Assembly: GCA_043797125.1 (NCBI GenBank)
Contig: JAZDPX010000013.1
Span: 9,180 to 73,179 of the forward strand
Reading direction: 5' to 3'
Origin: Candidatus Omnitrophota bacterium
GTDB taxonomy: Bacteria > Omnitrophota > Gorgyraeia > JABMRG01 > JAFGKX01
Length of the DNA stretch: 64,000 nt
Shown here: piece after piece, positions 24,497 to 61,230 of the stretch
Numbering within the stretch: the first letter of the stretch is position 1
Layout of the letters: every line of letters starts with the position of its first letter
Position numbers and translations under genes: made by a program
Notes under the pieces: generated by a model
Seen by the model: only the letters and a program-made list of their open reading frames with translations
What the model was told of the DNA's origin: nothing
The model's database searches: none

Positions 24497-24568
24497 AATT
24501 GCTCCTGTTCTATTATATGGTGCAACTGTACTATATTATAGGACAATAACCTTTGTTTTGTCAATCAT

Positions 24569-24594: not shown

Positions 24595-24733
24595 TTGGCT
24601 AAAGTTTCGATTTTGCTTGTAATAGGCAACTTCAGCTAAAATTGTATTTTTTGAGCTCACTTATATACCCCCATATGGTATCTAAATAGAATTAAAACAT
24701 ACAATTTACCCTTTGCCAAGCAGAAATATTCCT

Positions 24734-24777
24734 GTCATCCCCGCGCCTCACTGTCATGCCCGCGCAGGCGGGCATCC
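24734..24777. repeat. repeat A half copy plus variant copy
   Basis: They encode the C-terminus and stop of the GT4 gene. Confidence 0.8.
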
Positions 24778-25949: not shown

Positions 25950-25955
25950 ATTCTT

Positions 25956-26050
25956 GTCATCCCAACGCAAGCCAGCGGCCTTGCTGCTTCAAAGTAGCGG
26001 AGCCTTAAGGCTCCGCTACTTTGTTGTCATTCCCGCGCAAGCGGGAATCC
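25956..26050. repeat. composite: degenerate repeat A, repeat B, repeat A
   Basis: 25956-25980, 25994-26019 and 26026-26050. Confidence 0.8.
25994..26019. repeat. repeat B palindrome
   Basis: Exact copy, flanked by repeat-A copies. Confidence 0.9.
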
Positions 26051-28134
26051 ATTCCTTCAATCATCTCCGCTATTCTTTCCCTCTCCTTCAGCAACAACTC
26101 CCCGTCCTTCGTATAATCATACACCGTCTTCACTATACTTTCATCCACAGCCAGCAGGCGCTCTGCCTCTTTAATCAGCGCATTATCAGGATCCTGCGCC
26201 TTAAGCTGTTGTGTTAAATCATTCAATATATACATATATTCATAATCTTCTATGCCGTCTCTGATTGCTTCTATCCTTATTGTATCAACAGGGCCTCTAT
26301 CCCCGGGGTAAAGCAAACAGCCGTTTCCGTTTTGATTCGGCCAGGTTTGCGCTGTTTCCCATGGGTTTTTCTGCCAGTAATTTATGCACCAGTAAAGAAC
26401 GCCTGTTACTTTATACTTCCAGTTCATCCAGAATAAAATCCTGTGATCAATAGCCGGCTGGTCTATATTAAAAGCTGGGGTGCCTGTACGCAAGCCTGAA
26501 ACATACCACCAAACATCTTTTCCTTTTAATCTTTCCTTTTCAGCGACGTCTTCTCTAAAATTTATCAGTTGCGGGCACCAGATGTCTATATCATCGCCCC
26601 ATAGCTCACCGGGGCCGACAGTAACGAGTGTCTTTAAATCCGGGTGCACACTATGTATTAATTTAGTTATATGGCGTATCTTTTCCGCGTTCTCCTGGCC
26701 TGGTTCATCAAACACATAAATATACGCCATATCAAAAAGCTTTCGCATTTTTAAATAGTCAGCGTATGATAATAACACCCCGCGCACTTCTTCATCCTGT
26801 CCCCATTTGTTGTCGTTTTCGCCGCCCCATTCGCGCACTATTGAAAAAGCGCTTAGGCCTTTTTCCAGGCAAAACATCATACTTTCATCGTATTCATCAA
26901 AATTCAAATACAACGACCCCGTATTATCTACCTGTTGAGGTAATTCACCATATATATAAATAGGGCTTATATGATGGCGCAGCATATCGTCGTAATATAC
27001 GCGCTCCATTTGCCTGTTATATTCATTTTTACTGCTGTAAAACTTTTTTATATATATATCATATAAGTCAAAAGCTGTTTTCAGGTGCGGGCGCGTAGGC
27101 AAAGTGAAATTATACACTTTTAGTTTTAGCGCTATTTTGGTCGGCTGGGCGCCTTCGGGCTTTAATTCTATGGAGCCTTCGTAGTCGCCCGGCTGAGTAT
27201 CTTCCGGGATATATAAAGTAAACCATAAAGGCTGAACCTCGCCAACCGCCACGTTCACTGCTTTTGAGTCTAACAAAGGGTCCGGCCACCATCCGACATG
27301 CTCAACAGGATAATCCGCGACGTTTTCTGTTTTTACATATCCTACGGGATTAACATGCAGATTTTCAGCTCCTATTATGCCGTTGCCGTTAATCTGGCGC
27401 AGGGGCAAATTCATCACAGAAACGTTTTTAAGGTCTGCTTTAACAGGCATCAAAACAAGCTGAAAAGATTCATATTCATTTCTCGCGGCTTGAATGCTTA
27501 CCTCGCTTTGCATATCCGATGAAAAATTTGTTATCTCGCGGAATATTTTATTAATTGGCTTCTCAACGCTGACATAATAATCCCTGTCTCCCTGTTTTTG
27601 CATAGCCAGAGCATAGATTTCCTTCATCTTGTCTTCGATTGATACTTTTTTGCCCTTTAAAACTTTTATCGTGCCGACAGAGTGCGCGTTTTTATTTGTA
27701 TAGGGTAAGCGCGCGTATCCTTCGCTACCGTCGGATTTCTTTTTTTCATAGAACAGCCCCATCTCTATTGAATACATTCCCAAGGGAGCGTCTTCATCAA
27801 CAAATATCTGCATCGGCCCTATCTTTGTTATTTCCCCGGGCTTCCATTCGCTTGAAGCCGGTAATGGAAATCTGTCCGCATTTATCCACCCCTTGCCTAT
27901 GCCTGTATACAGGTGCACAAACAGTTTATAATTACGGTCTATCCGGCGCTGCGGCTTAAAATACGCATTCATCAAGAAAAATTCGCCTTGCTTTGCAGTC
28001 TTTGGCGCTTCCAATTTTACAAATTCAATATACGGCTCTTCTTCCAGCACATCGCTGGTTAAGTCCTCATATCTTCCCTTTAACATACTAAACACAATGG
28101 TTTTAACTCTATCAATAAAATCCCGTCCCAGCAT
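26005..28134 (-). CDS. large glycoside-hydrolase-like protein (DUF4091/GH123-like, tentative)
   Basis: 709 aa containing WWYVSG...LYWCINYW...GDRGP. The family call rests on memory only. The C-terminal MDSRLRGNDNK tail is encoded by repeat A. Confidence 0.45.
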   Translation of the reverse strand: MLGRDFIDRVKTIVFSMLKGRYEDLTSDVLEEEPYIEFVKLEAPKTAKQGEFFLMNAYFKPQRRIDRNYKLFVHLYTGIGKGWINADRFPLPASSEWKPGEITKIGPMQIFVDEDAPLGMYSIEMGLFYEKKKSDGSEGYARLPYTNKNAHSVGTIKVLKGKKVSIEDKMKEIYALAMQKQGDRDYYVSVEKPINKIFREITNFSSDMQSEVSIQAARNEYESFQLVLMPVKADLKNVSVMNLPLRQINGNGIIGAENLHVNPVGYVKTENVADYPVEHVGWWPDPLLDSKAVNVAVGEVQPLWFTLYIPEDTQPGDYEGSIELKPEGAQPTKIALKLKVYNFTLPTRPHLKTAFDLYDIYIKKFYSSKNEYNRQMERVYYDDMLRHHISPIYIYGELPQQVDNTGSLYLNFDEYDESMMFCLEKGLSAFSIVREWGGENDNKWGQDEEVRGVLLSYADYLKMRKLFDMAYIYVFDEPGQENAEKIRHITKLIHSVHPDLKTLVTVGPGELWGDDIDIWCPQLINFREDVAEKERLKGKDVWWYVSGLRTGTPAFNIDQPAIDHRILFWMNWKYKVTGVLYWCINYWQKNPWETAQTWPNQNGNGCLLYPGDRGPVDTIRIEAIRDGIEDYEYMYILNDLTQQLKAQDPDNALIKEAERLLAVDESIVKTVYDYTKDGELLLKERERIAEMIEGMDSRLRGNDNKVAEP

Positions 28135-28208
28135 TAATCCGGTGATAAAAATAGCTATTATGACTATTATTATAATAATTTTTTTCTTTTACATATCTTA
28201 GACTCGTC

Positions 28209-28327
28209 TGTCATCCCAGCAAAAACCCGCCTCTCCGTCATTGCAAGTAGCGGAGCCTTAAGGCTCCGCTACTACTACCTGTCATTCCCGCGAAACTTGT
28301 CCCCGTGAAAACGGGGAGCGGGGATCC
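28209..28327. repeat. composite: degenerate repeat A copies, repeat B, repeat A with 20-nt nested hairpin insertion
   Basis: The copy at 28281-28327 is GTCATTCCCGCGAAA[CTTGTCCCCGTGAAAACGGGGAG]CGGGGATCC. Confidence 0.8.
28247..28272. repeat. repeat B palindrome
   Basis: Exact copy, flanked by repeat-A copies. Confidence 0.9.
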
Positions 28328-31266
28328 AATAACTTTATATACAAATCCTGCGTCTTATTAATCATATTCCCCAATGAAAATATTGTCCTTACGCGCTCAT
28401 AAGCAGAATCTGCCACCACCTGGCACAATTCTGGAGATTTTATAAACTTCTCTATTGCTTTTGCCAGAGATACACTATCAGCGACAGGGACAAATGATTC
28501 TTCGGTGTCAATAAGTTCTCTATTCCCGCCTATATTAGTAACTATCACAGGCCTTTTCCTTGCCATAGCTTCCAAAATAACTATAGGAATACCCTCATAC
28601 AAAGAAGGCACTGCTATTATATTGCTAGCATCCATAATATCCGCAATATCTTTCCTAAATCCAGTAAATATAACTTTATCTTTTAGCTCTAGACCATCGA
28701 CCATTGACCATAGACTTTCTTTTATCGGCCCATCCCCGACTACTAGCAATTTAATATTATAATTTCCGTTTAAATGGCTAATAGCCTCGAACAAATACTT
28801 ATGCCCCTTCTGCTCAACTAATCTGCCTATAATCGCCAACACAATTTCATCATCCTTAATTCCCAACCCTCTTTTTACTGATGACTGATAACTGATGACT
28901 GATAACTTTTTTATTTCTATACCATTATATATAACGTCTATTTTATCTGCAGCAACCTTTGCGTTTTCTATATAGGCATTTTTAACTTCCTCACCTACTG
29001 CTATAATGCGGTTTGGTAATTTGGCTAAGAATTTTTCAAAGAATACTTCTAATTTATTATCCGCGAACTCTGTATTATGTATGGTTGTAATGCATTTTAT
29101 TCCCGCAATCTTAGCAGCTATAGTTCCCCACAAATTCGCTCCCCAAAGATGGGTATGCACAATATCAATATCGTAACTTTTCATAACCCTTACAAGCTTC
29201 CTGATTATAAATAAGTCGATCTTGCCCTTTTTGTGAAGTTCTAAAACCGGTATGCCTTCTTTTTCTAAGTTTTCCGCAAACACGCCTTTTTGATTAAGGC
29301 AGCATACAGCGACATTGAATCTGCTCTTATCCAGCCCTTTTGCCAGGTTGATTACAACTTGCTCCGCTCCTCCAAGCCCTAGGGACCAAATTACATACAT
29401 AACGTTTAATTTGCTGTGGGCTATGGGCTGTGAGCTGTGGGCTTTTTGTACCCAGCGATGCAATAAGTCGTACGAGCCAGCGAGCTTCTTCCTAAAATCA
29501 AACATACTATCAAACCCGCTGACTTCAGTCCTTTTCAGCTCGAACTGATCCTGCCCGGGTAAATTTGCTCCGGGCTTAATCGAACACGCTACTTTAAAAC
29601 CTGCTTTAGCTGTCAGGAATTTTACTTCCGCGTTAAAATCGCCTTTTGGATAACAGAAGAAGTCGCACTTTAATCCGTAGGACTCTATTATTTTTTTAGA
29701 ACCCTCAATTTCTAATTTAGCTTCTTCTATTGCCGCACCGGCTAACTTAACATGATTTAAAGTGTGCGCTCCAAACTCTATGGCATTTCGCGACATCTGT
29801 TGTATCTGGTCCCAGCTTAGAAATCCCTCTTTGCCCACTGATTCAGTAGCAACAAACACTGTTGCCGGCAAATTATATTCCTTTAATATCGGAAACGCAT
29901 TCGTATAATTATCTTCATACCCGTCATCAAACGTTATTACCACCTTCTTGGCCCACGAACTTACTTCTTTCAATCCTACAACCTCAAAATGCTCCTTTAA
30001 CCACTCCATCTGCTTCCTAAACTCACCCACCTTAACGCACAACCTGTCGTACGGACGATTATCGCTAACTCGATGATACATCAAAATTCTTACGCCGTCT
30101 TTCTGTCTAGACAAAACATAGGATAAATTGCTTGATATAGCTCTTATCTGTTTTTTCGGAGCTACAGCATTAGTTTCTTTAACAAAATATTGCATAATAT
30201 GCTCATTAGCATTAATCCAATATTTTTCATCAAATAAACTCTCTGCTCGCTTCCTTCCTGCTTCAGCCATAGAGTGCATCTTGGCCTTATCCTTTAGCAA
30301 CCCAATTATTGCTGATGTCAAAGCACCTGCATTGCCGGGCTTAATTAAAATACCGGTTACGCCATCTCTGACAACTTCCGGGCAACCTCCTATATTCGTA
30401 GCTATAACAGGCTTTCCCATTGCCATCGCTTCTCTTGCTGATTGAGGAAAAGACTCCCTTGTTGAGGACAATACAAATAAATCCATAATAGATAAAAATC
30501 TTGGAATGTCTTTTTGCAATCCAACAAATACAACCTTATCTTTTAATCCCAGACCATCGACCATAGACCATAGACTATCTTTCAATGGCCCATCGCCAAC
30601 AAAAATAAATCTTGCCCGTGGGAATTCCCTTAATACAACAGGCATTGCTTCTATAATATATTCCTGGCCCTTTTCCGGTGAAAGCCTTGCGACTGTTCCA
30701 ATTATAATATCATCTGGGGAAAACCCGAGTTCCCGCAAAAGCTCTTTATCTTTTTCTCGTGGAGAGAATCTATTCAAATCAATTCCGCTATGCACAACTA
30801 TTGTCTTATTTTGACTTAATCCCCACCTAATTAATCTGTTTCTTTCATATTCAGATTCGAATATCACCAATCTGCTGGCTAAATTTAAAATTATTCCGGA
30901 TATAAATAAGCTAAATTTTGAATGTATATTATGTATGGTGGTAATTACCGGCTTTTTTGCGCTATTAGCAAACAAAACCGCCAAAGTTGTGCGTATAGAT
31001 TGGGGCGCGATAATATCTATTTTTTCTTTTTCTATTATATTCTTAAGGGAGTTTGCTGATTCACGCAATTTTTTAAGCGAATTAAAATGAAAGTCTACGC
31101 TATAGTATTTCCCTCCTAAAGAAGTTATGTTTTGCGCAAATTTTCTATCCCTGCATGTCACAACAACATTGTGTCCGCGCTTTACAAGCTCCTTGGTAAA
31201 GGCAAAAATATCCTTCTGCGCCCCGCCAACTTCTAAGGAATGCGTTAAAAGATATAAGATATTCAT
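28282..31266 (-). CDS. tri-domain GT4 glycosyltransferase / NodB-type polysaccharide deacetylase / GT4 glycosyltransferase
   Basis: GT4 N-terminal domain, NodB motifs (ITFDDGYEDNYTNAFPILKEYNLPATVF; AHTLNH), then a second GT4 domain (EGIPIVILEAMA). Heptamer repeats are embedded at 28691, 28871, 29413 and 30551. The stop codon lies inside repeat A. Confidence 0.8.
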   Translation of the reverse strand: MNILYLLTHSLEVGGAQKDIFAFTKELVKRGHNVVVTCRDRKFAQNITSLGGKYYSVDFHFNSLKKLRESANSLKNIIEKEKIDIIAPQSIRTTLAVLFANSAKKPVITTIHNIHSKFSLFISGIILNLASRLVIFESEYERNRLIRWGLSQNKTIVVHSGIDLNRFSPREKDKELLRELGFSPDDIIIGTVARLSPEKGQEYIIEAMPVVLREFPRARFIFVGDGPLKDSLWSMVDGLGLKDKVVFVGLQKDIPRFLSIMDLFVLSSTRESFPQSAREAMAMGKPVIATNIGGCPEVVRDGVTGILIKPGNAGALTSAIIGLLKDKAKMHSMAEAGRKRAESLFDEKYWINANEHIMQYFVKETNAVAPKKQIRAISSNLSYVLSRQKDGVRILMYHRVSDNRPYDRLCVKVGEFRKQMEWLKEHFEVVGLKEVSSWAKKVVITFDDGYEDNYTNAFPILKEYNLPATVFVATESVGKEGFLSWDQIQQMSRNAIEFGAHTLNHVKLAGAAIEEAKLEIEGSKKIIESYGLKCDFFCYPKGDFNAEVKFLTAKAGFKVACSIKPGANLPGQDQFELKRTEVSGFDSMFDFRKKLAGSYDLLHRWVQKAHSSQPIAHSKLNVMYVIWSLGLGGAEQVVINLAKGLDKSRFNVAVCCLNQKGVFAENLEKEGIPVLELHKKGKIDLFIIRKLVRVMKSYDIDIVHTHLWGANLWGTIAAKIAGIKCITTIHNTEFADNKLEVFFEKFLAKLPNRIIAVGEEVKNAYIENAKVAADKIDVIYNGIEIKKLSVISYQSSVKRGLGIKDDEIVLAIIGRLVEQKGHKYLFEAISHLNGNYNIKLLVVGDGPIKESLWSMVDGLELKDKVIFTGFRKDIADIMDASNIIAVPSLYEGIPIVILEAMARKRPVIVTNIGGNRELIDTEESFVPVADSVSLAKAIEKFIKSPELCQVVADSAYERVRTIFSLGNMINKTQDLYIKLLDPRSPFSRGQVSRE

Positions 31267-46547: not shown

Positions 46548-46939
46548 TTGTGCTCTCTTCCATAATCATCCTCGAGCCTCTCGATATCGTCTTCCTCCAA
46601 ATACTTACCGCACTGGACTTCGATGATGCGAAGGGGCTTGTTAAGCTTGTTTTCAAGGCGGTGAAGCTCGCCCTTCGCGATGTAGGCGCTTTGGTTGGGC
46701 TTTAGGGTGTGGGCTTTTTTGTCTTCAACAATCTTTGCCTCGCCTTCGACTACTACCCAATGCTCGCTGCGCTTGTGGTGTTTCTGAAGGCTTAGTTTTT
46801 TGTTGGGGGATACTTCCACAAGCTTGACTTTGTAGCCATTGCCTTCGATTAGGACTGTGTATGAGCCCCAGGGACGTGTTACTGCTTTAGTCTTTATATT
46901 ATATTTAGTATTATTCATTCTGGGTCCTTTCGTCTTCAT
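46544..46939 (-). CDS. cupin-domain protein (type II mannose-6-phosphate isomerase-like cupin)
   Basis: Cupin motifs (QKHHKRSEHWVVVEGEA; GELHRLEN). Confidence 0.65.
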   Translation of the reverse strand: MKTKGPRMNNTKYNIKTKAVTRPWGSYTVLIEGNGYKVKLVEVSPNKKLSLQKHHKRSEHWVVVEGEAKIVEDKKAHTLKPNQSAYIAKGELHRLENKLNKPLRIIEVQCGKYLEEDDIERLEDDYGREHK

Positions 46940-46943: not shown

Positions 46944-47948
46944 TTAGGGTTTTTTGGAAAACCAATCGACGGTTTTACGGAGGCCGTCTTCGAAATTGAC
47001 CTGCGGTTTGAAGTTTAGGATTTTGCTGATTTTGGTGATGTCAGCACAGGTGCGCTTGACATCTCCGGCTCGCGGAGGGGTGTGGGTTGGCTTTATTTTT
47101 TTGCCCATTATTTTGTTGAGGGTGTCTACGAGTTCTAGGATACTGTGGTCATCGCCGGCGGCGACGTTGAAAACTTCGCAGAAGGTTTTGCAGGCTATGA
47201 GCTGTGGGCTATGAGCTGTGGGCTTTGAGCTTTGAGCTGGCACAGTTGCAGCTAGAATATTTGCGTTTACGACGTTGTCGATGTAGGTGAAGTCCCGGGA
47301 CTGAAGCCCATCGCCGTGAATTGGGGGATGCTCATTATTTAGCATGCAGTGTATAAATTTTGGGATTACTACAGCGTACTCGTCGTCTAAAGACTGTCTG
47401 GGCCCGAAGACATTGAAATATCTTAAGTTTACTGTTTCAAGGCCGTAGTTTTCGCTGAATACTCTGCTGTAATACTCTGCCGCGAGTTTTGTTAAAGCGT
47501 AAGGTGATATAAGAAGCGGCATATCTGTTTCTGATTGCGGAAACTTGCTGACATCGCCGTAAACTGAACTGGATGAAGCTATAACTACGCGCTTTACTTT
47601 TGCTTTCAGGGCCGCTTCGAGTATGTTAAGGGTGCCGTCTATGTTAACCGCGTTGTATTCGTGCGGCATTGTCATTGATTTCGGCACACTTCGCAGGGCT
47701 GCCTGGTGCAGGATGTAGTCGATGTTTTTGCAGGCGCGGGTGCAGGTGGCGGAGTCGCGGATGTCGCCTTTGATTAGTCTATAGTCAATGGTCGATGGTC
47801 GATGGCCTGAAACAAAAGATAGATTCTCTTCTTTACCGCTTGAGAAATTATCCAGCACGCGAACACTGTGGCCTTCTTTTAATAATCTTTCTGTTATATG
47901 GGAACCGATGAATCCAGCTCCGCCGGTCACAAGAAATTTCATATACAT
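46944..47948 (-). CDS. NAD-dependent sugar epimerase/dehydratase (extended SDR)
   Basis: Rossmann motif VTGGAGFIGSH and YALTKLAAE (YxxxK). It carries two heptamer-repeat-encoded insertions (HRPSTIDYR; PAQSSKPTAHSPQLIA). Confidence 0.85.
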   Translation of the reverse strand: MYMKFLVTGGAGFIGSHITERLLKEGHSVRVLDNFSSGKEENLSFVSGHRPSTIDYRLIKGDIRDSATCTRACKNIDYILHQAALRSVPKSMTMPHEYNAVNIDGTLNILEAALKAKVKRVVIASSSSVYGDVSKFPQSETDMPLLISPYALTKLAAEYYSRVFSENYGLETVNLRYFNVFGPRQSLDDEYAVVIPKFIHCMLNNEHPPIHGDGLQSRDFTYIDNVVNANILAATVPAQSSKPTAHSPQLIACKTFCEVFNVAAGDDHSILELVDTLNKIMGKKIKPTHTPPRAGDVKRTCADITKISKILNFKPQVNFEDGLRKTVDWFSKKP

Positions 47949-49105: not shown

Positions 49106-49159
49106 CCGTAGCGGAGCCTTAAGGCTCCGCTACGGTTATGGATATACTGTTGTGGATAA
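49106..49159. repeat. repeat B palindrome (CCG-extended) plus TGTGGATAAC tail
   Basis: Palindrome at 49108-49133 and TGTGGATAA at 49151-49159, in the spacer between two genes of the export operon. Confidence 0.9.
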
Positions 49160-49160
49160 C

Positions 49161-50024
49161 TTAATTTACTCCCACTACGATTACTTTTTCGCTTGGTTTA
49201 TGAAGAGGCATGTATGTGGTCCTGTGCATTAGGTCTTCTATTGCCTCAACTGCTATTTCCCTTGTTATTTGTTTTACTTCATACAAAAGCCCGCTTATTA
49301 ATGTGATATGGCAGGCAAGGTTTATAAGCCGGGGAATACCGCCTGAATATCTGTATATTTCATCGATTGCTTCTTTTGTGAATATGTCGACGTTTTCATT
49401 GCCTGCGGTCTTTAGCCTGTGTTGTATGTAGCGCTCTGTTTCGCTCTCGTTTAACGACGATAAATGATAATAGAAAACAATCCTCTGGCTGAATTGCGCG
49501 AGTTTATGATGCGCCAGCTTAGCGCGTAATTCCGGCTGGCCTATCAATATAATCTGGATAAGCTTTTCTGTCTCTGTCTCCATGTTAGAGAGCATCCTTA
49601 TCTCTTCAAGCACAGACGCGGTAAGATTCTGCGCTTCATCTATGATGAGCACGACATTTACCTCTTTTGCCGCCTGCTCTAATAAAAATTTGTTGAGCGC
49701 TGATAAAAGGCGCGGCTTTGAGGTTGCGTGGTATTCCACCCCAAAATCATCGAGTATAGTCTCGAGCAGCTCCTTTTTGCTTAAATGCGTATTAAGAATT
49801 AAAGCAATTTTTGTTGACGGATCCAAGCGGCTTAGCAGGGCTCTTGAGGTTGTTGTTTTTCCAGAGCCGATGTCGCCTGTAATAACAGCGAAGCCGTTTC
49901 TTTCGCTTATAGCGAGTAGGAGCCGATTAAGCGCTTCCTCGTGTTTTGAGCTTGCGAAGAAAAATTTTGAATCCGGTGTCAGGTTAAAAGGCCTGTCGGT
50001 AAAACCGTAGAATTTCTCGTACAT
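49161..50024 (-). CDS. ExeA/GspA-like AAA ATPase (PEP-CTERM-locus secretion ATPase type)
   Basis: Walker A GDIGSGKTT and Walker B VLIIDEAQ. Confidence 0.7.
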   Translation of the reverse strand: MYEKFYGFTDRPFNLTPDSKFFFASSKHEEALNRLLLAISERNGFAVITGDIGSGKTTTSRALLSRLDPSTKIALILNTHLSKKELLETILDDFGVEYHATSKPRLLSALNKFLLEQAAKEVNVVLIIDEAQNLTASVLEEIRMLSNMETETEKLIQIILIGQPELRAKLAHHKLAQFSQRIVFYYHLSSLNESETERYIQHRLKTAGNENVDIFTKEAIDEIYRYSGGIPRLINLACHITLISGLLYEVKQITREIAVEAIEDLMHRTTYMPLHKPSEKVIVVGVN

Positions 50025-50063
50025 GTTATTGTCTCCTTATTAAAATATTAAATTCTGCCAGCC

Positions 50064-50097
50064 AACCGTAGCGGAGCCTTAAGGCTCCGCTACGGTT
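50064..50097. repeat. repeat B palindrome extended to 34 bp (AACCG...CGGTT)
   Basis: Core at 50068-50093. The tail is degenerate (GTTGTAGACAAC). Confidence 0.9.
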
Positions 50098-50118
50098 GTA
50101 GACAACTCGTAATTATAT

Positions 50119-51423
50119 TTACCCCAATACAATATTGAATATTATAACAACCAACAAAACCACGCCTGTTATAATAGACAGGCCTGTTATTTTCATCCTG
50201 CGCATTCTTTGGGCGTTTAAGTCGGCGACTGTGATTATCTTCGGTATCGCGCCTAATATCGGCAAATCAAGCGTTTGCTTTGCCTGGTCAATTCCTAAAA
50301 ATGAATGGTCTAATAATTCAGCTATAAACACCATGCCCGCGCCTGCGCATATGCCCAGGAATATTGACATAAATAAAACAAGCGGCTTATTCGGCTTTAC
50401 AGGTTTTAACGGCAGTCTTGCAGGATCAAGAATTGTATATTTTGTGCCTTCTTTTGATGATTCAAGCCGCTGGGTGATTTTTGCTGTTTCTAAACGCTGA
50501 AGCAGGGTATCGTATAATCTTTGGTTTACGTTTGCGTCCCTGGCCGCGACATTGTCAATTCTTTCAAGAAGCAGGAGTTTGTATAGCTTGTCGTTTGTAG
50601 CTTCGGAGAACATTGTCCTGTTTGCGCCGGTGCTTGAGCCGTCAAGGCCGGTCGCGGTGAGCTCTTCCTTCATTTTTCCTAAATCATCCCTTAGGCCTGA
50701 TAATTCGCTGTCTGAACTTGCTATGGTTGATGTATTAATATTGTATATACCTTTTTCTAATTCGCCTTTAGCCTGCTCTATTTTCTTTTTTAGCTCCACA
50801 ACCACAGGATGTTTCTCTGTAGAATCAACGCGCAGTTTTTCAAGCTGGTCCTGCATTGCCGATATTTCGGATTGCTTAAGTTTTTTCTGATAAAGTTCGA
50901 GTTGGTCATTTATAAAATTAATGGCGTTGTCGGTTTCCTGCGTCTGCTGGCGCAGGTTTTCAGCGATGAATATGTCTGTTATTGTCTTTACTATATTCTG
51001 CGATTCCAGCGCGTCCTTGCCGTCGTAGGAAATAGTTACGAGGCTATCGCCGCGTAGTTTCACTATGATATTCTGGCGCAAGTTCTTAACTAAATTTTCA
51101 AACTGCTCCTGGCTTCTTACGTCCTTTGCAAGGTTAAGCTTTGTTATAAGCTGATTTATCCTGTCCCAGCCAAGTATCTGCTCGCGCAATACAGCCAATC
51201 GCTGAGCTGTGCTGGTTGATACTGCCAAACCCTGCACAAGCGGATTTATTATCCTGCCTTCTTCAACAAGAATAAGTGTCGATGCCCTGTATGCCTTAGG
51301 AAGGGCGTTGGCAGCTATTACGCCGAGCGCAATTGCTATCACTGTCGGGATAATAACAAGCCATTTCCTTCTGAAGAAGATTTTCAGATAATCTAAAGGT
51401 TTTTTCTCTGATCCTGTATACAT
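50119..51423 (-). CDS. polysaccharide chain-length determinant (Wzz/GumC-like)
   Basis: N- and C-terminal TM helices flank a long coiled-coil periplasmic domain. Confidence 0.7.
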   Translation of the reverse strand: MYTGSEKKPLDYLKIFFRRKWLVIIPTVIAIALGVIAANALPKAYRASTLILVEEGRIINPLVQGLAVSTSTAQRLAVLREQILGWDRINQLITKLNLAKDVRSQEQFENLVKNLRQNIIVKLRGDSLVTISYDGKDALESQNIVKTITDIFIAENLRQQTQETDNAINFINDQLELYQKKLKQSEISAMQDQLEKLRVDSTEKHPVVVELKKKIEQAKGELEKGIYNINTSTIASSDSELSGLRDDLGKMKEELTATGLDGSSTGANRTMFSEATNDKLYKLLLLERIDNVAARDANVNQRLYDTLLQRLETAKITQRLESSKEGTKYTILDPARLPLKPVKPNKPLVLFMSIFLGICAGAGMVFIAELLDHSFLGIDQAKQTLDLPILGAIPKIITVADLNAQRMRRMKITGLSIITGVVLLVVIIFNIVLG

Positions 51424-51452
51424 TTGAAGCTCCTTTAACCCTTCCGTATTCT

Positions 51453-51490
51453 GTAGCGGAGCCTTAAGGCTCCGCTACGGTTGTGGATAA
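51453..51490. repeat. repeat B palindrome plus TGTGGATAA tail
   Basis: Core at 51453-51478 and TGTGGATAA at 51482-51490, which abuts the Wza-like gene stop. Confidence 0.9.
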
Positions 51491-52501
51491 CTACATCGCT
51501 AATGCTGCGCCGCTTGCTGCAGCGCCCGCTGCTTCGCTTGTGGCATTGGTCACCGGAGATATTACGCGGATTATCTTTGCCATTGCTGTTGCCGGTATAT
51601 ACAGCACATCGCCCGGCTTCATATCGATATTTTCTTTAAGGTCGCCTTCGTATAGTAATTTATACACGTTTACGTAAGTGTAATTATTCCTGCCGGTGTT
51701 ATTAGGCGTAATCAGTCGGCATTTTCTCATGGCTGCGGAATATGTGGGAAGCCCTGACTGCACAAGGGCCTCTCTTATAGTAATAGTATTTCCTCTCATA
51801 TAATATTTGCCCGGGTTTGCTGCCTCGCCTACTACGTAGAAAACCTTGCTTAGATAGGCAACTATTGTTACATCGACTTCCGGCGCGATAAGAAAATCCG
51901 AGAGGATTTCAGTCAGCCTTTTATTAAGCTGCAATTTTGTAAGGCCACTAACGGCAATATCCCCTACAAACTTGTATTCAATCTTTCCCTCTGAATTAAC
52001 TGTATACTGGCCGCTGAATTCGGGATGCCTTCTTACCTCAATTGAAACCACGTCATTGGGCCCGAGGGTGTATTTGACCTCTTCCATAATATCTACGACT
52101 GTTGGCGGTGTGCCTGCAACAGGAAGAGCGCTAAGGTTTATATCGACAGATTTCGGGGTCTCAACCACGCCTTGAGTCTTGGCAAAATTTGTCTGGGCGA
52201 AAGATGTACCAGCGCATAAGAAATACGCTGCAAGCGCAACAGACAACGCAAAGATGATGATAGATAAAGTCTTGGCGTAATTTGCTGCTGCAGCTACGGT
52301 TTCCTCATATTCATAGGAGCTTTCGTAGAATTTCCTGATTTCTTCTACCTCATCCTTTTGATAAAACCTCCAGCCGCGCCAGTCTCTTTTTGATTTCTTT
52401 ATTTTGCCGGCCTTCTCCCACCTCATAATGGTGCGGGGAGTCACGCCAATGTATTTTGCCGCATCTGTGATGCTTAATCTATTGCTTATTGCCATAGCCA
52501 T
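51491..52501 (-). CDS. Wza-like polysaccharide export protein with in-frame N-terminal MerR/excisionase-type HTH
   Basis: Poly_export/SLBB-like body (PGDVLYIPA) after a signal or anchor helix. The first 60 aa are an HTH (LSITDAAKYIGVTPRTIMRWEKAG). Confidence 0.7.
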   Translation of the reverse strand: MAMAISNRLSITDAAKYIGVTPRTIMRWEKAGKIKKSKRDWRGWRFYQKDEVEEIRKFYESSYEYEETVAAAANYAKTLSIIIFALSVALAAYFLCAGTSFAQTNFAKTQGVVETPKSVDINLSALPVAGTPPTVVDIMEEVKYTLGPNDVVSIEVRRHPEFSGQYTVNSEGKIEYKFVGDIAVSGLTKLQLNKRLTEILSDFLIAPEVDVTIVAYLSKVFYVVGEAANPGKYYMRGNTITIREALVQSGLPTYSAAMRKCRLITPNNTGRNNYTYVNVYKLLYEGDLKENIDMKPGDVLYIPATAMAKIIRVISPVTNATSEAAGAAASGAALAM

Positions 52502-52598: not shown

Positions 52599-52662
52599 AA
52601 CTTAAGTTTTTGCGAAAAAATTATATAGTGATGTAACTTGTTGTAGATAAAAGAGTTGTAAG

Positions 52663-52698
52663 CACACGTAGCGGAGGCTTAAGCCTCCGCTACGTGTG
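52663..52698. repeat. repeat B variant, 36-bp perfect palindrome (centre GGCTTAAGCC)
   Basis: CACACGTAGCGGAGGCTTAAGCCTCCGCTACGTGTG. Confidence 0.9.
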
Positions 52699-52764
52699 CT
52701 CTTGCGTTTCCTATGTTGAATTATATAGACACGTGTATCTAAAACTGCTAAAATATATCCCCTT

Positions 52765-54051
52765 ATGCAACACAAACTAGCACACCACCATAAAATGCTT
52801 CAGAAAATGGCTCTTACGCCTCAAATGAAGCAATCTATCCAGCTTTTGGGTATGTCTACAAAGGACTTAAATGAATATGTTGATGCTGCGTTAGAAAAAA
52901 ATCCATTTTTAAAAAAAGAGATTACAGCGCCAAGGACTGCCAAGGCTTCGGATGATGACTACGATTACACTGCAAACATACGCCAGGAAGAAAATCCCCG
53001 CATGAACTTTATTTCCCAGCTTGAAATAATGGATATTGAAACAGGCTTGTTGGACATTGCTAAATACCTTATATATGAAATGGATGATAATGGTTATATT
53101 AATATTGATTTAGAAGATGCTGCGCAGGAACTTGCTGCTGATACGACTGATATTGAGGCAGCGCTTGCCATTGTGCAGTCAATGGAGCCGGCAGGCATTG
53201 GCGCAAGAAATATTCAGGAGTGTTTGAGCCTGCAGCTTAAAAGAAGGGGCAAGGAAGATTCTGTTGAGTACAGGATAGTGAATGGGTTCTTAAATGAGCT
53301 TACTAGAAATGATGCTGAAAAAATAGCGAAACAACTAAAAATAAGCAGCCAACAGGCTGAAACCGCGATTAAGACTATAAAGCTGCTTAACCCTCGGCCA
53401 ACGAGCACTCTTTTTAGTAAGGAAGCTCATGCTGTAACGCCTGATTTAATTGCAGAGGTTGGGGGCAAGAAATTGCGCCTGTGGCTGAACAGGCAATGGC
53501 TGCCTAATATTACATTCTACAATCCTTATGAGGACGAACCTGAAATAACCGAGGATGCAACAGCAAAAAAATTCATTACGGAGAATAAGCAGGCTGCCAA
53601 AGGCCTGATAGACGGCTTAAAGAGGCGCGAGGAGACTTTGCTTAAGGTAGCGCAATATCTGCTGGGTTTTCAGCTGGATAGCTTCATAGACGAGAGCCGG
53701 CACATAAAAAGCCTCGCGATAAAAGATGTGGCTTCTGCCTTAAAAATGCATACTACCACAATAAGCAGGACCGTTTCCCACAAATATGTGCAGATAAATA
53801 ATCAGACCATGCCGTTAAAGGGCCTGCTAAGCGGGGAAATCAAGAATAAAGACGGGCAAGTTACATCAAAGGCATCTATCAAAACTAAAATTAACGCGCT
53901 TGTTAAAGCTGAGGACAAAACGCATCCTTTAAGCGATAAACAAATAAAAGAATCTCTCGAGAAAGAAGGCATCTCCATTAACCGGCGCACCGTAGCAAAA
54001 TACCGCGACTCGCTGCGCCTTTTGCCTGCGCATTTAAGAAGAAAATCGTAG
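52765..54051 (+). CDS. rpoN: RNA polymerase sigma-54 factor
   Basis: Region I (MALTPQMKQSIQLLGMSTKDL) and a C-terminal RpoN box (NRRTVAKYRDSL). Confidence 0.9.
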   Translation: MQHKLAHHHKMLQKMALTPQMKQSIQLLGMSTKDLNEYVDAALEKNPFLKKEITAPRTAKASDDDYDYTANIRQEENPRMNFISQLEIMDIETGLLDIAKYLIYEMDDNGYINIDLEDAAQELAADTTDIEAALAIVQSMEPAGIGARNIQECLSLQLKRRGKEDSVEYRIVNGFLNELTRNDAEKIAKQLKISSQQAETAIKTIKLLNPRPTSTLFSKEAHAVTPDLIAEVGGKKLRLWLNRQWLPNITFYNPYEDEPEITEDATAKKFITENKQAAKGLIDGLKRREETLLKVAQYLLGFQLDSFIDESRHIKSLAIKDVASALKMHTTTISRTVSHKYVQINNQTMPLKGLLSGEIKNKDGQVTSKASIKTKINALVKAEDKTHPLSDKQIKESLEKEGISINRRTVAKYRDSLRLLPAHLRRKS

Positions 54052-54073
54052 CGGAGCCTTAAGGCTCCGCTAC
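54048..54073. repeat. repeat B palindrome overlapping rpoN stop codon
   Basis: The TAG stop of rpoN is the GTAG at the start of the palindrome. Confidence 0.9.
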
Positions 54074-57859: not shown

Positions 57860-57897
57860 GTAGCGCAGGCTTAAGCCTGCGCTACTGCTGTGGATAA
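57860..57897. repeat. repeat B variant (GTAGCGCAGGCTTAAGCCTGCGCTAC) plus TGTGGATAA tail
   Basis: The central TTAA provides the stop codon of the PNPOx-like gene. Tail at 57889-57897. Confidence 0.9.
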
Positions 57898-58359
57898 CCT
57901 ATGCGGCGTTAAATCGACTATCTCGTAGACTTCCACGTCTATCAGGTACTCCGGCTCTGGCAGAAATATCTCCGGGTGCGCCTTGTGGCCTTTTTCGCCT
58001 TTTATGTTGCGCAGGATTCTTTGAGTAATCCTGCTTGTTATCCTTTCATCCCATGCCTTTTTTACGCTTGATTTAAGTTTTTTATTTTCCGCTATAGTCG
58101 CTTTTCCCTTCAGGCAGCAGCCTCTGAATTTATGCTCATCAACGGCTGTGAGGCTTATGTTCGGGTTTTGCCTTAGGTTCTGGCTTGTCCTTGCCTTGTA
58201 AAGATCCAGTAAATACACGTGGCCGTTCTTGTCAATTTCAACTATGCCCTTACAGGAAGCGTGCGGCGTACCGTTTTCATCTATGGTTGAAACAATGACA
58301 AAACCCTGCCGAAGCAGAAACAGGACTGTCGCCTCAGGTATAGGAATGGGGGTTGGCAT
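57871..58359 (-). CDS. pyridoxamine 5'-phosphate oxidase-like FMN-binding protein
   Basis: PNPOx-like split-barrel protein of 162 aa. The last 6 codons and the TAA stop are supplied by palindrome repeat B. Confidence 0.55.
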   Translation of the reverse strand: MPTPIPIPEATVLFLLRQGFVIVSTIDENGTPHASCKGIVEIDKNGHVYLLDLYKARTSQNLRQNPNISLTAVDEHKFRGCCLKGKATIAENKKLKSSVKKAWDERITSRITQRILRNIKGEKGHKAHPEIFLPEPEYLIDVEVYEIVDLTPHRLSTAVAQA

Positions 58360-58362
58360 AAA

Positions 58363-58488
58363 TTAACCCGATATCTTCTCCATGGGCTGCTCGCAGCAGA
58401 CAAGCTCGCCGCCGCCTGCCTTTGTTACAACAACTTCATTGCCGCAGATATTGCACAGATATTTTTCATTCACCTTTTCTACCGCCAT
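58363..58488 (-). CDS. desulforedoxin (small Cys4 iron protein)
   Basis: 41-aa ORF MAVEKVNEKYLCNICGNEVVVTKAGGGELVCCEQPMEKISG with the Dx signature CxxCG...GGG.LVCC and an AAGGAGG SD. It is missing from the ORF track because it is under 60 aa. Confidence 0.75.
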   Translation of the reverse strand: MAVEKVNEKYLCNICGNEVVVTKAGGGELVCCEQPMEKISG

Positions 58489-58542
58489 TTATGCCTCCTT
58501 GCCCTCGGCTCCGCCGAGAGGCGAGCCTCGCCGTCAGGCAGG

Positions 58543-58959
58543 CTATCTAAAAAAATCGAAATATACAGCCGCAATTATAGCAAGCGCCGATAAAAAGAAT
58601 ATAAAAAAGTAATTAATTGTATCCTTTTTTGAACTTAAAGCGCAAAGTATTGCGCCTATAACGTTGAAATCTTCTTTTGTTAAAGGCTTTTGGCCTCTAA
58701 TCTTATCTACCAGGTCAGCCTTGTTTATCAGTTTAGCCCTGGCGCGGTTGATATTAAATTTGTATACAAAAAACGCAAAAAAACCAATCACGCCCACATA
58801 CCAGGCAATTTTTCCGTAAATAGGGTTTATATCAATTAAAATAGTAACAATGCGAAGAGCCGCGGTCGCGATAATGCCTATTATAAAAAATATCCACGAG
58901 GCAAAACTATCCTCGCATCTTTTATTCTCCGAACAATTCAGGCATTTGTCTGTTTGCAT
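58543..58959 (-). CDS. small membrane protein with N-terminal Cys cluster
   Basis: CLNCSENKRCE followed by three TM helices. Confidence 0.5.
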   Translation of the reverse strand: MQTDKCLNCSENKRCEDSFASWIFFIIGIIATAALRIVTILIDINPIYGKIAWYVGVIGFFAFFVYKFNINRARAKLINKADLVDKIRGQKPLTKEDFNVIGAILCALSSKKDTINYFFIFFLSALAIIAAVYFDFFR

Positions 58960-58960
58960 A

Positions 58961-59605
58961 TTAATTTATTATGTTTTTTAGTTTAATTATGTCGTCTATT
59001 ACAAAATCCGGTTTTGCCTTGATTATGTCTTGCCTTTTGCCGATTCCGTAAGTAACGCCGCATGTGGCGATGCCGGCTTCTTTGCCTGCCTGTATATCCA
59101 CCGGCATATCGCCTACTATAATCGTCTTTTCCTTATTCACGTTTAGCTTGAGCATTGTTTTATTCAATGGGCAGGAAGAGGGCTTCATGCAGGCTGAATC
59201 ATCCCCGCCTAAAATATCTTCAAAATAACTTGATATCCCAAGGGCCTTTAGCGCAATTTTTGCGAATTTTGATTTTCTGTTTGTCACAACGGCTTTTCTT
59301 TTGTCGCTGAAATACTTTAACGTCTCTTTGGTGTTAGGATAGAGGGCGCTGTTGTCAGTGGAATGCTTTGTAAAATATTCCTCAAACACAAGCACCGCTT
59401 TATCCATAAGAACTGGCGCTTTTTTACCTAAAGATTTCCTGATCAGGTCATTTACGCCTGTGCCGATAAAAGCCGCTATCTGGCCTTCGCTTTTTTCGCG
59501 CAGCCCGAGGCTTTTCAGCGTAAAATTAACAGCGCTAACTATGTCCTTTTTTGAATCGACAAGCGTGCCGTCTAAGTCAAATATTATGAGGTCCACGGAT
59601 TTCAT
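58961..59605 (-). CDS. HAD-superfamily phosphatase (phosphoglycolate phosphatase-like)
   Basis: Motif I IIFDLDGTLVDS and motif IV GDMPVDIQAG. Confidence 0.8.
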   Translation of the reverse strand: MKSVDLIIFDLDGTLVDSKKDIVSAVNFTLKSLGLREKSEGQIAAFIGTGVNDLIRKSLGKKAPVLMDKAVLVFEEYFTKHSTDNSALYPNTKETLKYFSDKRKAVVTNRKSKFAKIALKALGISSYFEDILGGDDSACMKPSSCPLNKTMLKLNVNKEKTIIVGDMPVDIQAGKEAGIATCGVTYGIGKRQDIIKAKPDFVIDDIIKLKNIIN

Positions 59606-59606
59606 T

Positions 59607-60326
59607 TTAATATCCCGCGAAATTCTCCGTTACTATGCTGGTTGGTTTAAGCGATAATTTATTTCTTAAAATATCGGTCAGGGCTGCCACCATAACAGGG
59701 GGACCGCACAAGTAAAAAATTCTTTCCATATAATCCGGGATTTCCAGGGTTATCATTTTATCGTCGATATACCCAATCCTGCCCGTCCATTTGCTTTTAT
59801 CAATATCCGGGGCGGTCAGGGTATAGACGGCTCGGATATTTTTGTTGGCAGCTGCCATGTTATCAAAATCTGCCTTAAATATAATATCTTCTTCTTTATT
59901 GTTGCCGTATAAAAGTACAATATCAGCGCCCAGTTTCTTATCTGCAATAAACTTACATATGCTTCTTATCGGCGTTATACCGATTCCTCCGGAGAGAAAA
60001 GCTATTTTTTTATATTCGGGCTTGTATGTAAAAGAGCCGTAGGGCATCCTTAGCCGCGCCAAGTCGCCGAGTTTTAGTCCATCCAGCGCCTTTGAATATT
60101 CGCTTGATGTTATTCTTTTGGTGAATTCTATATGTTGACTCTCTGTAGGAGAACTTGAAAACGAGAAATGCTTGCTTTTTTCGATGCCCGCGACATTAAT
60201 TTTAACAAAAAAATACTGCCCTGCCTGAAAATCAGCGCCTTGCCTTGTCTTAAACCTGAAACTTTTTACTCCCGGGGCTCTTTTTATTACGTCTGTTACT
60301 TCGGTGTCAAATTCCACGACGCCCAT
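59607..60326 (-). CDS. FNR-family FAD/NAD(P)H oxidoreductase
   Basis: FAD (HFSFSS) and NAD (GGIGITPIRS) motifs; no Fe-S domain. Confidence 0.7.
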   Translation of the reverse strand: MGVVEFDTEVTDVIKRAPGVKSFRFKTRQGADFQAGQYFFVKINVAGIEKSKHFSFSSSPTESQHIEFTKRITSSEYSKALDGLKLGDLARLRMPYGSFTYKPEYKKIAFLSGGIGITPIRSICKFIADKKLGADIVLLYGNNKEEDIIFKADFDNMAAANKNIRAVYTLTAPDIDKSKWTGRIGYIDDKMITLEIPDYMERIFYLCGPPVMVAALTDILRNKLSLKPTSIVTENFAGY

Positions 60327-60327
60327 A

Positions 60328-60549
60328 TCAGACCGCGATTACTTTTTTTACCTGGGGGACTTCTTTTCTTATGGTCTGCTCAACGCCTGCTTTTAAAGTC
60401 ATCTGGCTCATCGGGCAATGGCTGCACGCGCCTGTCAGCTTCACCTTCACTACGCCGTCGGCTGACACGTCCACAAGTTTTACGTCGCCGCCGTCTGCCT
60501 GAAGCGACGGCCTTATTTTATTTAAAGCAGCTTCCACCTTATCTTTCAT
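60328..60549 (-). CDS. NifU C-terminal-domain (Nfu-type) Fe-S assembly protein
   Basis: 73 aa with a CxxC motif (LTGACSHCP). Confidence 0.75.
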   Translation of the reverse strand: MKDKVEAALNKIRPSLQADGGDVKLVDVSADGVVKVKLTGACSHCPMSQMTLKAGVEQTIRKEVPQVKKVIAV

Positions 60550-60587
60550 ATTTTATTTCCTCCTATCTAATGCTCATATATCATCAA

Positions 60588-60625
60588 GTAGCGGAGCCTT
60601 AAGGCTCCGCTACAGCTGTGGATAA
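60588..60625. repeat. repeat B palindrome plus TGTGGATAA tail
   Basis: Core at 60588-60613 and tail at 60617-60625, which abuts the ferritin stop. Confidence 0.9.
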
Positions 60626-61126
60626 CTATTTCCTCTCTGTCAATTCCAAGTCTATCTTTGCAAGGCCTTCTTTAGCTGTCCCAACGGATTTAATCTTTTC
60701 CAAAATTCCCGCAGGAGCTGCCTCCTCTTCCATCTGTTCCTTTACAAACCACTGCAGATATTCAGCTGTCTTTTCATCCTTTTCCGCCTTTGCCAGGCTA
60801 ACAAGGCCGTTTATTAAGCCTGTCACCTTTTTTTCGTGCTCTAATGTCCTTTTAAACAGTTCCGGAGCGGATGTAAAATCCTGAGGCGGCGTCTCGATAT
60901 CTTCCAGGATAACTTTATTCCCTTGAGAAATTATATAGTCAAACAGCTTATCCGCGTGAAAAAGCTCTTCCTTAAACTGTATCTTAAACCAGTTCGCGAA
61001 GCCCTTCAGGCCTAAAGATGCGGCATAGGCAGCCATGCCTAAATAGAAATAGCCAGAATAAATTTCCCTGTTAACCTGATAATTAAGCGCCTTTGCCAAA
61101 TTTTTGCTTAGCATTTTTGACTCCAA
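60626..61126 (-). CDS. ferritin (non-haem, bacterial type)
   Basis: Ferritin-like di-iron ligands (EELFHADKLFDYI; E..HEK). Confidence 0.8.
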   Translation of the reverse strand: MESKMLSKNLAKALNYQVNREIYSGYFYLGMAAYAASLGLKGFANWFKIQFKEELFHADKLFDYIISQGNKVILEDIETPPQDFTSAPELFKRTLEHEKKVTGLINGLVSLAKAEKDEKTAEYLQWFVKEQMEEEAAPAGILEKIKSVGTAKEGLAKIDLELTERK

Positions 61127-61139
61127 TAAACTACCTTGG

Positions 61140-61177
61140 GTAGCGCAGGCTTAAGCCTGCGCTACGGTTGTGGATAA
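61140..61177. repeat. repeat B variant plus TGTGGATAA tail
   Basis: Core at 61140-61165 and tail at 61169-61177. Confidence 0.9.
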
Positions 61178-61230
61178 CTTTTTTGTTATTGCCTAAATAT
61201 ACAATACATCAACCGGTTTGTAAAGAATTA

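Follow-up and report, generated by a model that had tools for sequence, protein, structure and literature searches.

The subject of this analysis is a short palindrome that recurs in a 64-kb stretch of DNA (64,000 nt, hereafter the window; G+C 40.6%) from a Candidatus Omnitrophota bacterium. Eleven copies are present, each a perfect 26-nt palindrome of the form GTAGCG[G/C]AG[G/C]C-TTAA-G[G/C]CT[G/C]CGCTAC, in agreement with the count of eleven, variants included, in an earlier note on this DNA; 100 dinucleotide-preserving shuffles of the window gave no match, which puts the chance expectation at zero. Eight copies have the GGAGCC form (21813, 25994, 28247, 49108, 50068, 51453, 54048 and 60588), one has the GGAGGC form (52668) and two have the GCAGGC form (57860 and 61140), where each position is that of the first nucleotide of the 26-nt core in window coordinates. 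Flanking bases lengthen the palindrome to 28–40 nt in eight of the eleven copies. The perfect palindrome is 26 nt long in three copies, 28 nt in four, and 30, 34, 36 and 40 nt in one each, so that a length described earlier as often 30–36 bp was an overstatement: seven copies are 26 or 28 nt long, and 30, 34 and 36 nt occur once each. The stem of 11 bp and the loop of 4 nt (TTAA) fall within the range expected of a repetitive extragenic palindrome (REP), which is a G+C-rich stem of 7–20 bp with a loop of 2–5 nt, and GTAG stands at the foot of the stem in all eleven copies and in all related variants but one (TTAG, at a locus labelled L007). REPs are defined by a GT[AG]G guide located 0–2 nt 5′ of a short G+C-rich hairpin that flanks a single-copy tnpA-REP gene (PMC6006769, PMC5581495).

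By a greedy map of open reading frames (ORFs), 6.7% of the window is non-coding. Eight of the copies are wholly non-coding and the other three overlap an ORF by its last 4–15 nt only, so the placement at spacers and gene ends claimed for the repeat applies to every copy; for six of the eleven hairpins, a stop codon is either overlapped or no more than 12 nt away. The copies from 21813 to 28247 lie within a region of exosortase and glycosyltransferase genes, those from 49108 to 51453 separate genes within a minus-strand polysaccharide-export operon, and those from 57860 to 61140 lie within a minus-strand cluster of oxidative-stress and iron genes (Rrf2, Fer4, ferritin, NifU, PNPOx-like, rubrerythrin, desulfoferrodoxin, glutaredoxin and thioredoxin reductase). 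Between 32000 and 48000, a stretch of low G+C (0.35–0.37, vs about 0.43 elsewhere) with tightly packed minus-strand genes has no copy at all, and more recent acquisition of this stretch would fit these properties.

Some copies are accompanied by a 10-mer, TGTGGATAAC, referred to here as the tail. It occurs exactly five times in the window, always on the plus strand and always to the right of a palindrome. Four of the five exact tails (51482, 57889, 60617 and 61169) begin 3 nt after CTAC, and the fifth (49151) is 17 nt away from copy 49108. The earlier description of a tail following five copies after 3–4 nt is therefore right as to the number of exact tails, but the spacing holds for only four of them.

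Individual copies differ in their relationship to the adjacent genes. In the exosortase and glycosyltransferase region, copy 21813 (21813–21838) lies between convergent AbiEii-like (plus-strand) and DUF3485 (minus-strand) genes, and is followed on the plus strand by a T-rich run and then by a hairpin at 21851 that belongs to a second repeat family, GTCATYCCCGCGMAAGCGGGRATCCA. Hairpins of this second family, which do not have GTAG, were seen eight times in the window, at 14967, 19944, 20208, 21851, 21900, 24753, 26026 (+) and 47958 (−). The TAA in the loop of copy 25994 (25994–26019) is the stop codon (26005–26007, minus strand) of a GH123-like gene (26005–28134), whose last four codons, VAEP, come from the arm of the repeat; the copy is 23 nt upstream of the start of the next gene (25970), and a second-family hairpin comes next, at 26026. 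Copy 28247 (28247–28272) is 9 nt downstream of the stop codon of a minus-strand ORF (28282–31266). A second-family hairpin or a fragment of one stands directly after each of these three copies, producing mosaics that resemble bacterial interspersed mosaic elements (BIMEs).

In the polysaccharide-export operon, three copies form units with tails on the minus strand. The unit at 49108–49160 consists of the palindrome (49108–49133), a degenerate tail-like sequence, TTATGGATATAC (49136–49147), and an exact tail, TGTGGATAAC (49151–49160), that abuts the TAA stop codon (49161–49163) of an AAA_22 gene. The unit at 50068–50106, between the Wzz/GNVR and AAA_22 genes, has a palindrome (50068–50093) extended to 36 nt and a degenerate tail, TGTAGACAAC (50097–50106). 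The unit at 51453–51491 has the palindrome at 51453–51478, a GGT spacer and a tail (51482–51491) whose last base is shared with the TAG stop codon (51491–51493) of the Poly_export gene, 12 nt from the hairpin. The divergent spacer between the Poly_export gene and rpoN contains the longest palindrome, 40 nt without a mismatch (52661–52700; core 52668–52693), with CACAC on both sides. At copy 54048 (54048–54073), nucleotides 2–4 (54049–54051) are the TAG stop codon of rpoN (plus strand), at a convergent junction with an Ogg gene (minus strand); this copy is terminator-like for the minus-strand transcript.

The remaining three copies, all minus-strand units with an exact tail, belong to the oxidative-stress and iron cluster. 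The unit at 57860–57898 (palindrome 57860–57885, TGC spacer, tail 57889–57898) lies entirely within the 3′ end of the PNPOx-like ORF, where palindrome and tail encode ...(R)LSTAVAQA and the loop provides the TAA stop codon (57871–57873). In the unit at 60588–60626 (palindrome 60588–60613, AGC spacer, tail 60617–60626), the TAG stop codon of the ferritin gene (60626–60628) shares the last base of the tail, and the NifU start codon is 38 nt downstream of the hairpin. The unit at 61140–61178 (palindrome 61140–61165, GGT spacer, tail 61169–61178) is upstream of the ferritin gene.

Three genes in the window thus end inside a copy of the repeat. The stop codons of rpoN (the TAG at nucleotides 2–4 of copy 54048) and of the PNPOx-like gene (the TAA in the loop of copy 57860) had been attributed to the repeat before, and both are confirmed; the third, that of the GH123-like gene (...VAEP-TAA in copy 25994), had been missed. 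The PNPOx-like protein, which is identical to MFH0731660.1 (Candidatus Omnitrophota), shows how far a gene end can be rebuilt. Its homologues end in ...DLTPHxLK, and the window protein ends in ...DLTPHRLSTAVAQA: a terminus of the type ...HRLK has become ...HRLSTAVAQA, with S-T-A derived from the tail and spacer, V-A-Q-A from the arm of the palindrome and the stop codon from the loop. In relatives with the same gene cluster (L031–L034), the spacers are 12–40 nt long, a Shine-Dalgarno sequence is present and the palindrome is absent. An out-of-frame TAG (57899–57901) abuts the tail in the window, where CATAG is followed directly by GTTATCCACA, and at the empty site in L033 (10460–10470) AAATAG is followed by GTTATTG. 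This junction and the empty site suggest that the element inserted next to TAG-GTTA and that a small (10-nt) deletion after the insertion may have fused the PNPOx-like ORF to it; alternatively, the GTTA (or TTA) at the start of the tail may be part of the target rather than of the element. The same reading frame through the repeat, GTA GCG xAG xCx TAA, also ends the GH123-like gene (VAEP and stop), as well as a transposase gene at L003 and a peptidase gene at L015 (both VAQA and stop). A stop codon is met inside the element in two of three frames on either strand, which explains why a gene end can be clipped by a copy without harm.

Evidence for the nature of the palindrome came from exact-pattern scans of genome and metagenome contigs, in which loci were labelled L### and transposase proteins P####. 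The palindrome was found at 14 genome loci and 10 metagenome loci that range in G+C from 38% to 57%; most are in metagenome-assembled genomes (MAGs) of Omnitrophota, and others are in a Spirochaetes MAG and in Syntrophomonas zehnderi. No copy was found in the viral contigs scanned. At L003 (Omnitrophota nzgw291), an exact copy of GTAGCGCAGGCTTAAGCCTGCGCTAC stands on each side of a 168-aa ORF that has an HUH motif (MPDHLHLII) and a Y-x3-NP motif (YIHQNPV). This ORF matches Pfam Y1_Tnp and scores 130.9 bits against NCBIfam NF047646, the family of REP-associated tyrosine transposases (RAYTs), for which the cutoff is 80. Its top match in the PDB is E. coli TnpA-REP (4ER8; E = 8e-11), with alignment of the WQxR...E...R stretch. 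In TnpA-REP, this stretch contacts GTAG (residues listed in PMC6006769). A homologous RAYT is flanked by the palindrome at L007, and the palindrome lies within about 1.2 kb of a RAYT at L009 and L015. Altogether, the same repeat or one with a covarying stem flanks a RAYT gene at L003, L007, L025–L028, L035/L036 and L037/L038, and RAYTs adjacent to it score 82.7–131 bits against NF047646; in related contigs of Omnitrophota, Spirochaetes and Syntrophomonas, the scores are about 125–131 bits. The description of the palindrome as REP-like in the earlier note is thus borne out on both counts, by the GTAG guide tetranucleotide and by the RAYT genes that the palindrome flanks in related genomes.

The association extends to RAYTs of the same clade whose flanking palindromes have other stems. 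P0122, P0128 and P0136, which are 58–77% identical to the L003 RAYT, and P0197 and P0184, which are 48–52% identical to the L007 RAYT, are flanked by 26-nt palindromes of the form GTAG-N7-(T)TTAA(A)-N7-CTAC; GTAGGTCACGTTTAAACGTGACCTAC, GTAGGCCAGGTTTAAACCTGGCCTAC and GTAGAGCACCATTAATGGTGCTCTAC are examples. In four Omnitrophota loci (L003, L025, L026/L027 and L029/L030), the RAYT gene lies upstream of spoVG-UPF0102-comM-like genes. This conserved synteny beside spoVG argues for long vertical residence, and fits the finding that RAYTs are single-copy and vertically inherited (PMC5581495). The cassette of palindrome, RAYT and palindrome is bracketed by a direct duplication of 31–88 nt of the spoVG leader (L003, 2390–2420 vs 3043–3076; L025, 4730–4774 vs 5514–5558; L029, 8318–8405 vs 8996–9083), which is kept across RAYTs that are 58–77% identical. 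At L025 (5339–5401), the TTTAAA centre of one copy is split by another small hairpin, which may be a case of nested insertion into the loop. At L009, in Syntrophomonas zehnderi, a long tandem-repeat array (5345–6320), partly N-masked, lies between the flagellin gene and palindrome (5257) on one side and the RAYT gene (6427–6903) on the other.

Taken with the features of the copies in the window, the palindrome is very probably a REP, the non-autonomous hairpin element of a clade of HUH/Y1 transposases of the RAYT type, whose members occur in Candidatus Omnitrophota and have a patchier distribution in Spirochaetes, Syntrophomonas, Elusimicrobiota-type and other uncultured lineages. REPs as a kind are known, and the transposase that spreads them is a domesticated, single-copy one, but Omnitrophota are little studied; a full-text literature search with three palindrome sequences, and for Omnitrophota with REP, found no description, and the REP-RAYT system would accordingly be one in a phylum for which no prior description was found in the literature searched. 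Rfam gave no family match for the whole window at gathering thresholds. Beyond this assignment, we infer mobilisation in the source genome, effects at the RNA level and a role for the tail. On the model of E. coli TnpA-REP and IS200/IS605, the substrate of the RAYT would be the hairpin in single-stranded DNA plus the GTAG at its 5′ foot; the enzyme would cut and rejoin the hairpin, probably on the lagging-strand template, and so seed copies without target duplications. Copies would survive where they do little damage, between genes and right at their 3′ ends, and the element's own TAG (frame 2) and TAA (frame 1) would close the reading frames that a copy clips. Transcribed inside operons, the G+C-rich stem of 11–20 bp would most likely have the functions of E. 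coli REPs, blocking 3′ exonucleases, marking a processing point or, if no more than about 15 nt from a stop codon, acting as a brake on termination. In E. coli, REP stems shield the mRNA upstream of them from 3′ exonucleases, cause genes of one operon to be expressed at different levels and retard termination near stop codons. An mRNA-stabilising or processing role, one of the possibilities raised in the earlier note, is plausible here by the same comparison, given the strength and position of the hairpins: the DNA hairpin has a free energy of about −13 kcal/mol, and the RNA hairpins have free energies of −22 to −42 kcal/mol with z-scores of −4 to −10.

No target-site duplication was found at any of the eleven copies, where flanking direct repeats are 0–2 nt long whether or not the tail is included. 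The earlier suggestion of a family of miniature inverted-repeat transposable elements (MITEs) is apt in the loose sense of a non-autonomous element, but the DDE-type signature of inverted repeats plus a duplication is absent; a MITE of a DDE transposon was rejected, the unit being a 26-nt hairpin with neither an internal segment nor a duplication. Integron attC sites were rejected by inspection, since they are imperfect palindromes of at least about 57 nt at the ends of cassettes, with RYYYAAC / GTTRRRY cores, whereas the element is 26–39 nt long, GTTATCC does not fit GTTRRRY and the flanking genes form a conserved syntenic cluster.

Several observations weigh against the assignment to a REP-RAYT system. 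No RAYT gene was detected in the 64-kb window by tblastn, none of the RAYT hits checked had an accession tying it to the MAG of the window, and a cognate RAYT in the source genome is assumed. The GTAG is itself base-paired with CTAC in these copies. The copies are single perfect palindromes, unlike the REP doublets (REPINs) of Pseudomonas; nearest neighbours in the window are 552–1385 nt apart, no doublet was met there, and a tandem pair was seen only beside the L035 RAYT. The evidence from covariation is open to bias. Across ten distinct variants, GTAG/CTAC (with the single TTAG exception), the A8:T19 pair and the TTAA centre are constant, and of the seven stem pairs that vary, six have changed in both arms. 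Pairing holds in 97% of cells vs 22–43% in slid controls, an inflated figure, since a palindrome search supplied some of the variants. Even so, double changes of this kind are needed to keep a hairpin, and a sequence-specific operator would not need them. Lastly, the tail contains a 9-mer that is invariant in five copies of the window while the 3-nt spacer varies (ACC, GCA or GCT), and the tail accompanies two different stem variants. The invariance of the 9-mer beside a variable spacer and stem suggests a constraint that a purely passive flank would not need.

That 9-mer, TTATCCACA, is the basis of the strongest alternative, which concerns the tail: that it is a working DnaA box, such that one REP subfamily carries a high-affinity DnaA site beside its hairpin. 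The site would be bound by DnaA, or by the DnaA-domain-IV-like helix-turn-helix (HTH) that is fused to some RAYTs, and could aid the RAYT at the replication fork, much as DnaA does at the outside end of Tn5, or could instead titrate DnaA or block RNA polymerase between genes. The 9-mer matches the stringent consensus TT[AT]TNCACA exactly, and each of its five perfect occurrences in the window belongs to a REP tail. Conservation of the tail beyond the window, on which the earlier note had made its interpretation depend, was found: the 9-mer is intact, and the tail has the same spacing, in other genomes at L017 (GTTATCCACA-ACT-GTAG) and L020 (CTAC-GT-TGTGGATAAG). The relaxed tails of L016 (TTATTCACA) and L022 (TTTTTCACA) fit the consensus too, varying only at its degenerate positions. 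There is precedent for both parts of the proposal, in that DnaA has a site within the Tn5 ends (PMC3347997), and a Bac_DnaA_C-like domain, for which no DNA ligand has been described, is part of the RAYTs of subclass 2.1.2 (PMC6006769).

The flanks of the wider REP family point in another direction. In an unbiased count over the 12 nt 5′ of GTAG, CACA is the 4-mer with the strongest enrichment: it occurs on 16 of 82 sides vs 1.6 expected, and outside the window it is found on 10 of 60 sides vs 1.2 expected, most often as CACA-N3-GTAG. Four of the nine bases of the supposed box are therefore a family-wide REP flank motif, which also occurs in copies without DnaA-box-like bases upstream (L026–L028 and window copy 52668). 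Copies 52668 and 50068 have the CACA motif, or the near copy CAACC, on both sides, so that the inner half of the tail is an extension of a longer palindrome. CAAC is likewise enriched 5′ of GTAG (10 vs 1.9 expected). The rule by which the guide pairs with the cleavage site in IS608 would predict CA[A/T]C for a GTAG guide, a parallel that is suggestive only and is not relied on here. The tail TGTGGATAAC belongs to one REP subfamily, and its inner half (GGT-TGTG, or CACA-ACC on the other strand) is common to the flanks of the REP family.

Other features also speak against a working DnaA box. The fixed spacing of 2–3 nt to GTAG points to one composite substrate. Degenerate tails (that of copy 50068, TGTAGACAAC; the inner tail of copy 49108; and L014, GCGGATAAC) break core positions of the box and yet persist; at L014/L023, GCGGATAAC is 13 nt away from the hairpin. 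The RAYTs adjacent to this REP are short (158–168 aa) and match Y1_Tnp only, and no DnaA_C domain was found among 47 relatives of the L003 RAYT or the best 120 of 306 relatives of the L007 RAYT, all of which have Y1_Tnp as their only domain and most of which are 150–210 aa long. As to the DnaA-box identity put forward in the earlier note, the exact match of the 9-mer stands in five tails, but the sites are scattered singly, for the most part directly behind stop codons, and the window has no clusters such as those of oriC, datA-type loci or DnaA-regulated promoters. The match was also noticed after the fact, from sequence.

The earlier note had the tail always preceding the hairpin in the direction of transcription, which is true of all six tailed copies in the window but fails at L020 and L014, where the hairpin follows a stop codon and the tail stands just before the next start codon. 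Read on the minus strand, which is G-rich and is taken as the lagging-strand template, each of the six window copies has its tail on the 5′ side of the hairpin. By analogy, such a strand bias would be expected of IS200/IS605-type elements, and within the window it is inseparable from the transcription bias. We infer that the tail is part of the transposition substrate, either a flank or the cleavage-target region, rather than a working DnaA box, and the DnaA-binding interpretation is the less likely of the two. As an explanation of the tail, a working DnaA box is unlikely; binding of the tail by DnaA or a DnaA-like protein is an outside chance; and it is similarly doubtful that a REP subfamily acquired a consensus DnaA box 3 nt from its hairpin for use by DnaA or by the DnaA-domain-IV-like HTH of a RAYT.

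A second alternative, which is very unlikely, is that the hairpins are host-encoded RNA signals, either intrinsic terminators or stabilising and processing stems, that were selected in place and are not mobile DNA. The strength of the RNA stems would suit such signals, as would the proximity of six of the eleven copies to stop codons. Two to four copies do resemble intrinsic terminators, with a T-rich run after 54048 (minus strand) and 52668 and, by eye, after 21813 and 25994 (plus strand). However, most copies have no U-tract in the direction of transcription; the sequence is identical across unrelated operons and across phyla with 38–57% G+C; copy 52668 is in a divergent promoter spacer; and RAYT genes lie between copies of the same palindrome. 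Identical 26-mers would not be the product of selection in place. Intrinsic terminators were rejected as a general account, as only 52668 (plus strand) and 54048 (minus strand) pass a terminator scan between 47 and 64 kb, and the tailed copies have no U-tract on the transcribed strand. A third alternative, that the palindrome is the operator of a dimeric transcription factor, such as a nearby Rrf2 or MerR-type regulator, and defines a regulon, has in its favour perfect dyad symmetry and the several copies in the oxidative-stress and iron cluster, at whose head is an Rrf2 regulator, but it can be set aside almost entirely, since other copies are in operons for polysaccharide export and glycosyltransferases and behind rpoN, most copies follow stop codons and are not at promoters, the arms change together with pairing kept, so that structure and not base-specific contacts is preserved, and the orthologous cluster has no such site in L033 and L031.

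The REP-RAYT interpretation has its closest parallel in the REPs and BIMEs of E. coli and their transposase TnpA-REP (4ER8; subclass 2.2 / group 2). In both systems, a short G+C-rich hairpin has GTAG at its 5′ foot, copies outside genes are numerous and lie inside operons without target duplications, a single-copy HUH/Y1 transposase is flanked by its own REPs, and mosaics are formed with other repeats, here by the three copies joined to the second hairpin family. The Omnitrophota repeat differs in being a perfect 26-nt palindrome in which GTAG pairs with CTAC, so that both strands present a GTAG-hairpin, and in its self-complementary TTAA loop, its host, the 10-nt tail of one subfamily and the several overlaps with gene ends. 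Like the SMAG repeats of Stenotrophomonas maltophilia, which are palindromes of about 22–25 nt with a 5′ GTAG, abundant between genes and linked to RAYTs, it is a compact palindrome; sequence and host differ, and to our knowledge no tail has been reported for SMAG.

As in the REPIN-RAYT systems of Pseudomonas described by Bertels and Rainey (PMC3116915, PMC5581495), the RAYT gene seems to have been inherited vertically and is present as a single copy, and the REPs are near-identical and over-represented in extragenic space. Unlike in those systems, the unit is a single palindrome, with no spacer-separated doublets seen, and the same REP is found in distant phyla, which suggests some horizontal movement. 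The ends of IS200/IS605 elements (IS608, ISDra2; PMC6006769) share subterminal single-stranded DNA hairpins, a guide tetranucleotide 5′ of the hairpin foot, a strand bias and the lack of target duplications, and the sequence between their cleavage site and hairpin resembles the tail; here there is no transposase inside the element, and there are no distinct left and right ends. The ends of Tn5/IS50 (PMC3347997) are comparable in having a single consensus-type DnaA box beside a transposase substrate, but Tn5 is a DDE transposon that acts on duplex DNA and DnaA binding to it was shown experimentally, whereas the resemblance of the tail is one of sequence.

The window has one further set of repeats, tandem heptamers within long ORF calls at 4999–5026, 29417–29444, 46696–46719 and 47191–47239, and also at 28692–28712, 30552–30572 and 47787–47800. 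The plus-strand units are TGGGCTG or TGAGCTG, with a second type, GACCAT[CTA], and the period of 7 nt is not a codon multiple. These runs may be spacers that ORF calling has read through, and the 994-aa ORF at 28282–31266 may be more than one gene. Runs of GCCCACAG, similar to the window heptamers, adjoin REPs in L015 and L019.

Nearly all characterised REP-RAYT systems are from Proteobacteria, and a well-defined pair is documented here in Candidatus Omnitrophota and in neighbouring uncultured lineages, with a REP design that is compact and perfectly symmetrical. For annotators of MAGs from these lineages, C-termini that end in VAQA or VAEP and stop codons supplied by a repeat are to be expected, and the palindromes should not be taken for terminators or operators. 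If the tail were bound by DnaA or by a DnaA-like HTH, it would link REP biology to replication control: mobilisation of REPs, or REP-dependent control of neighbouring genes, would then be coupled to the replication initiator, and the DnaA_C-like domains of RAYT subclass 2.1.2 would have a first DNA ligand in the tail.

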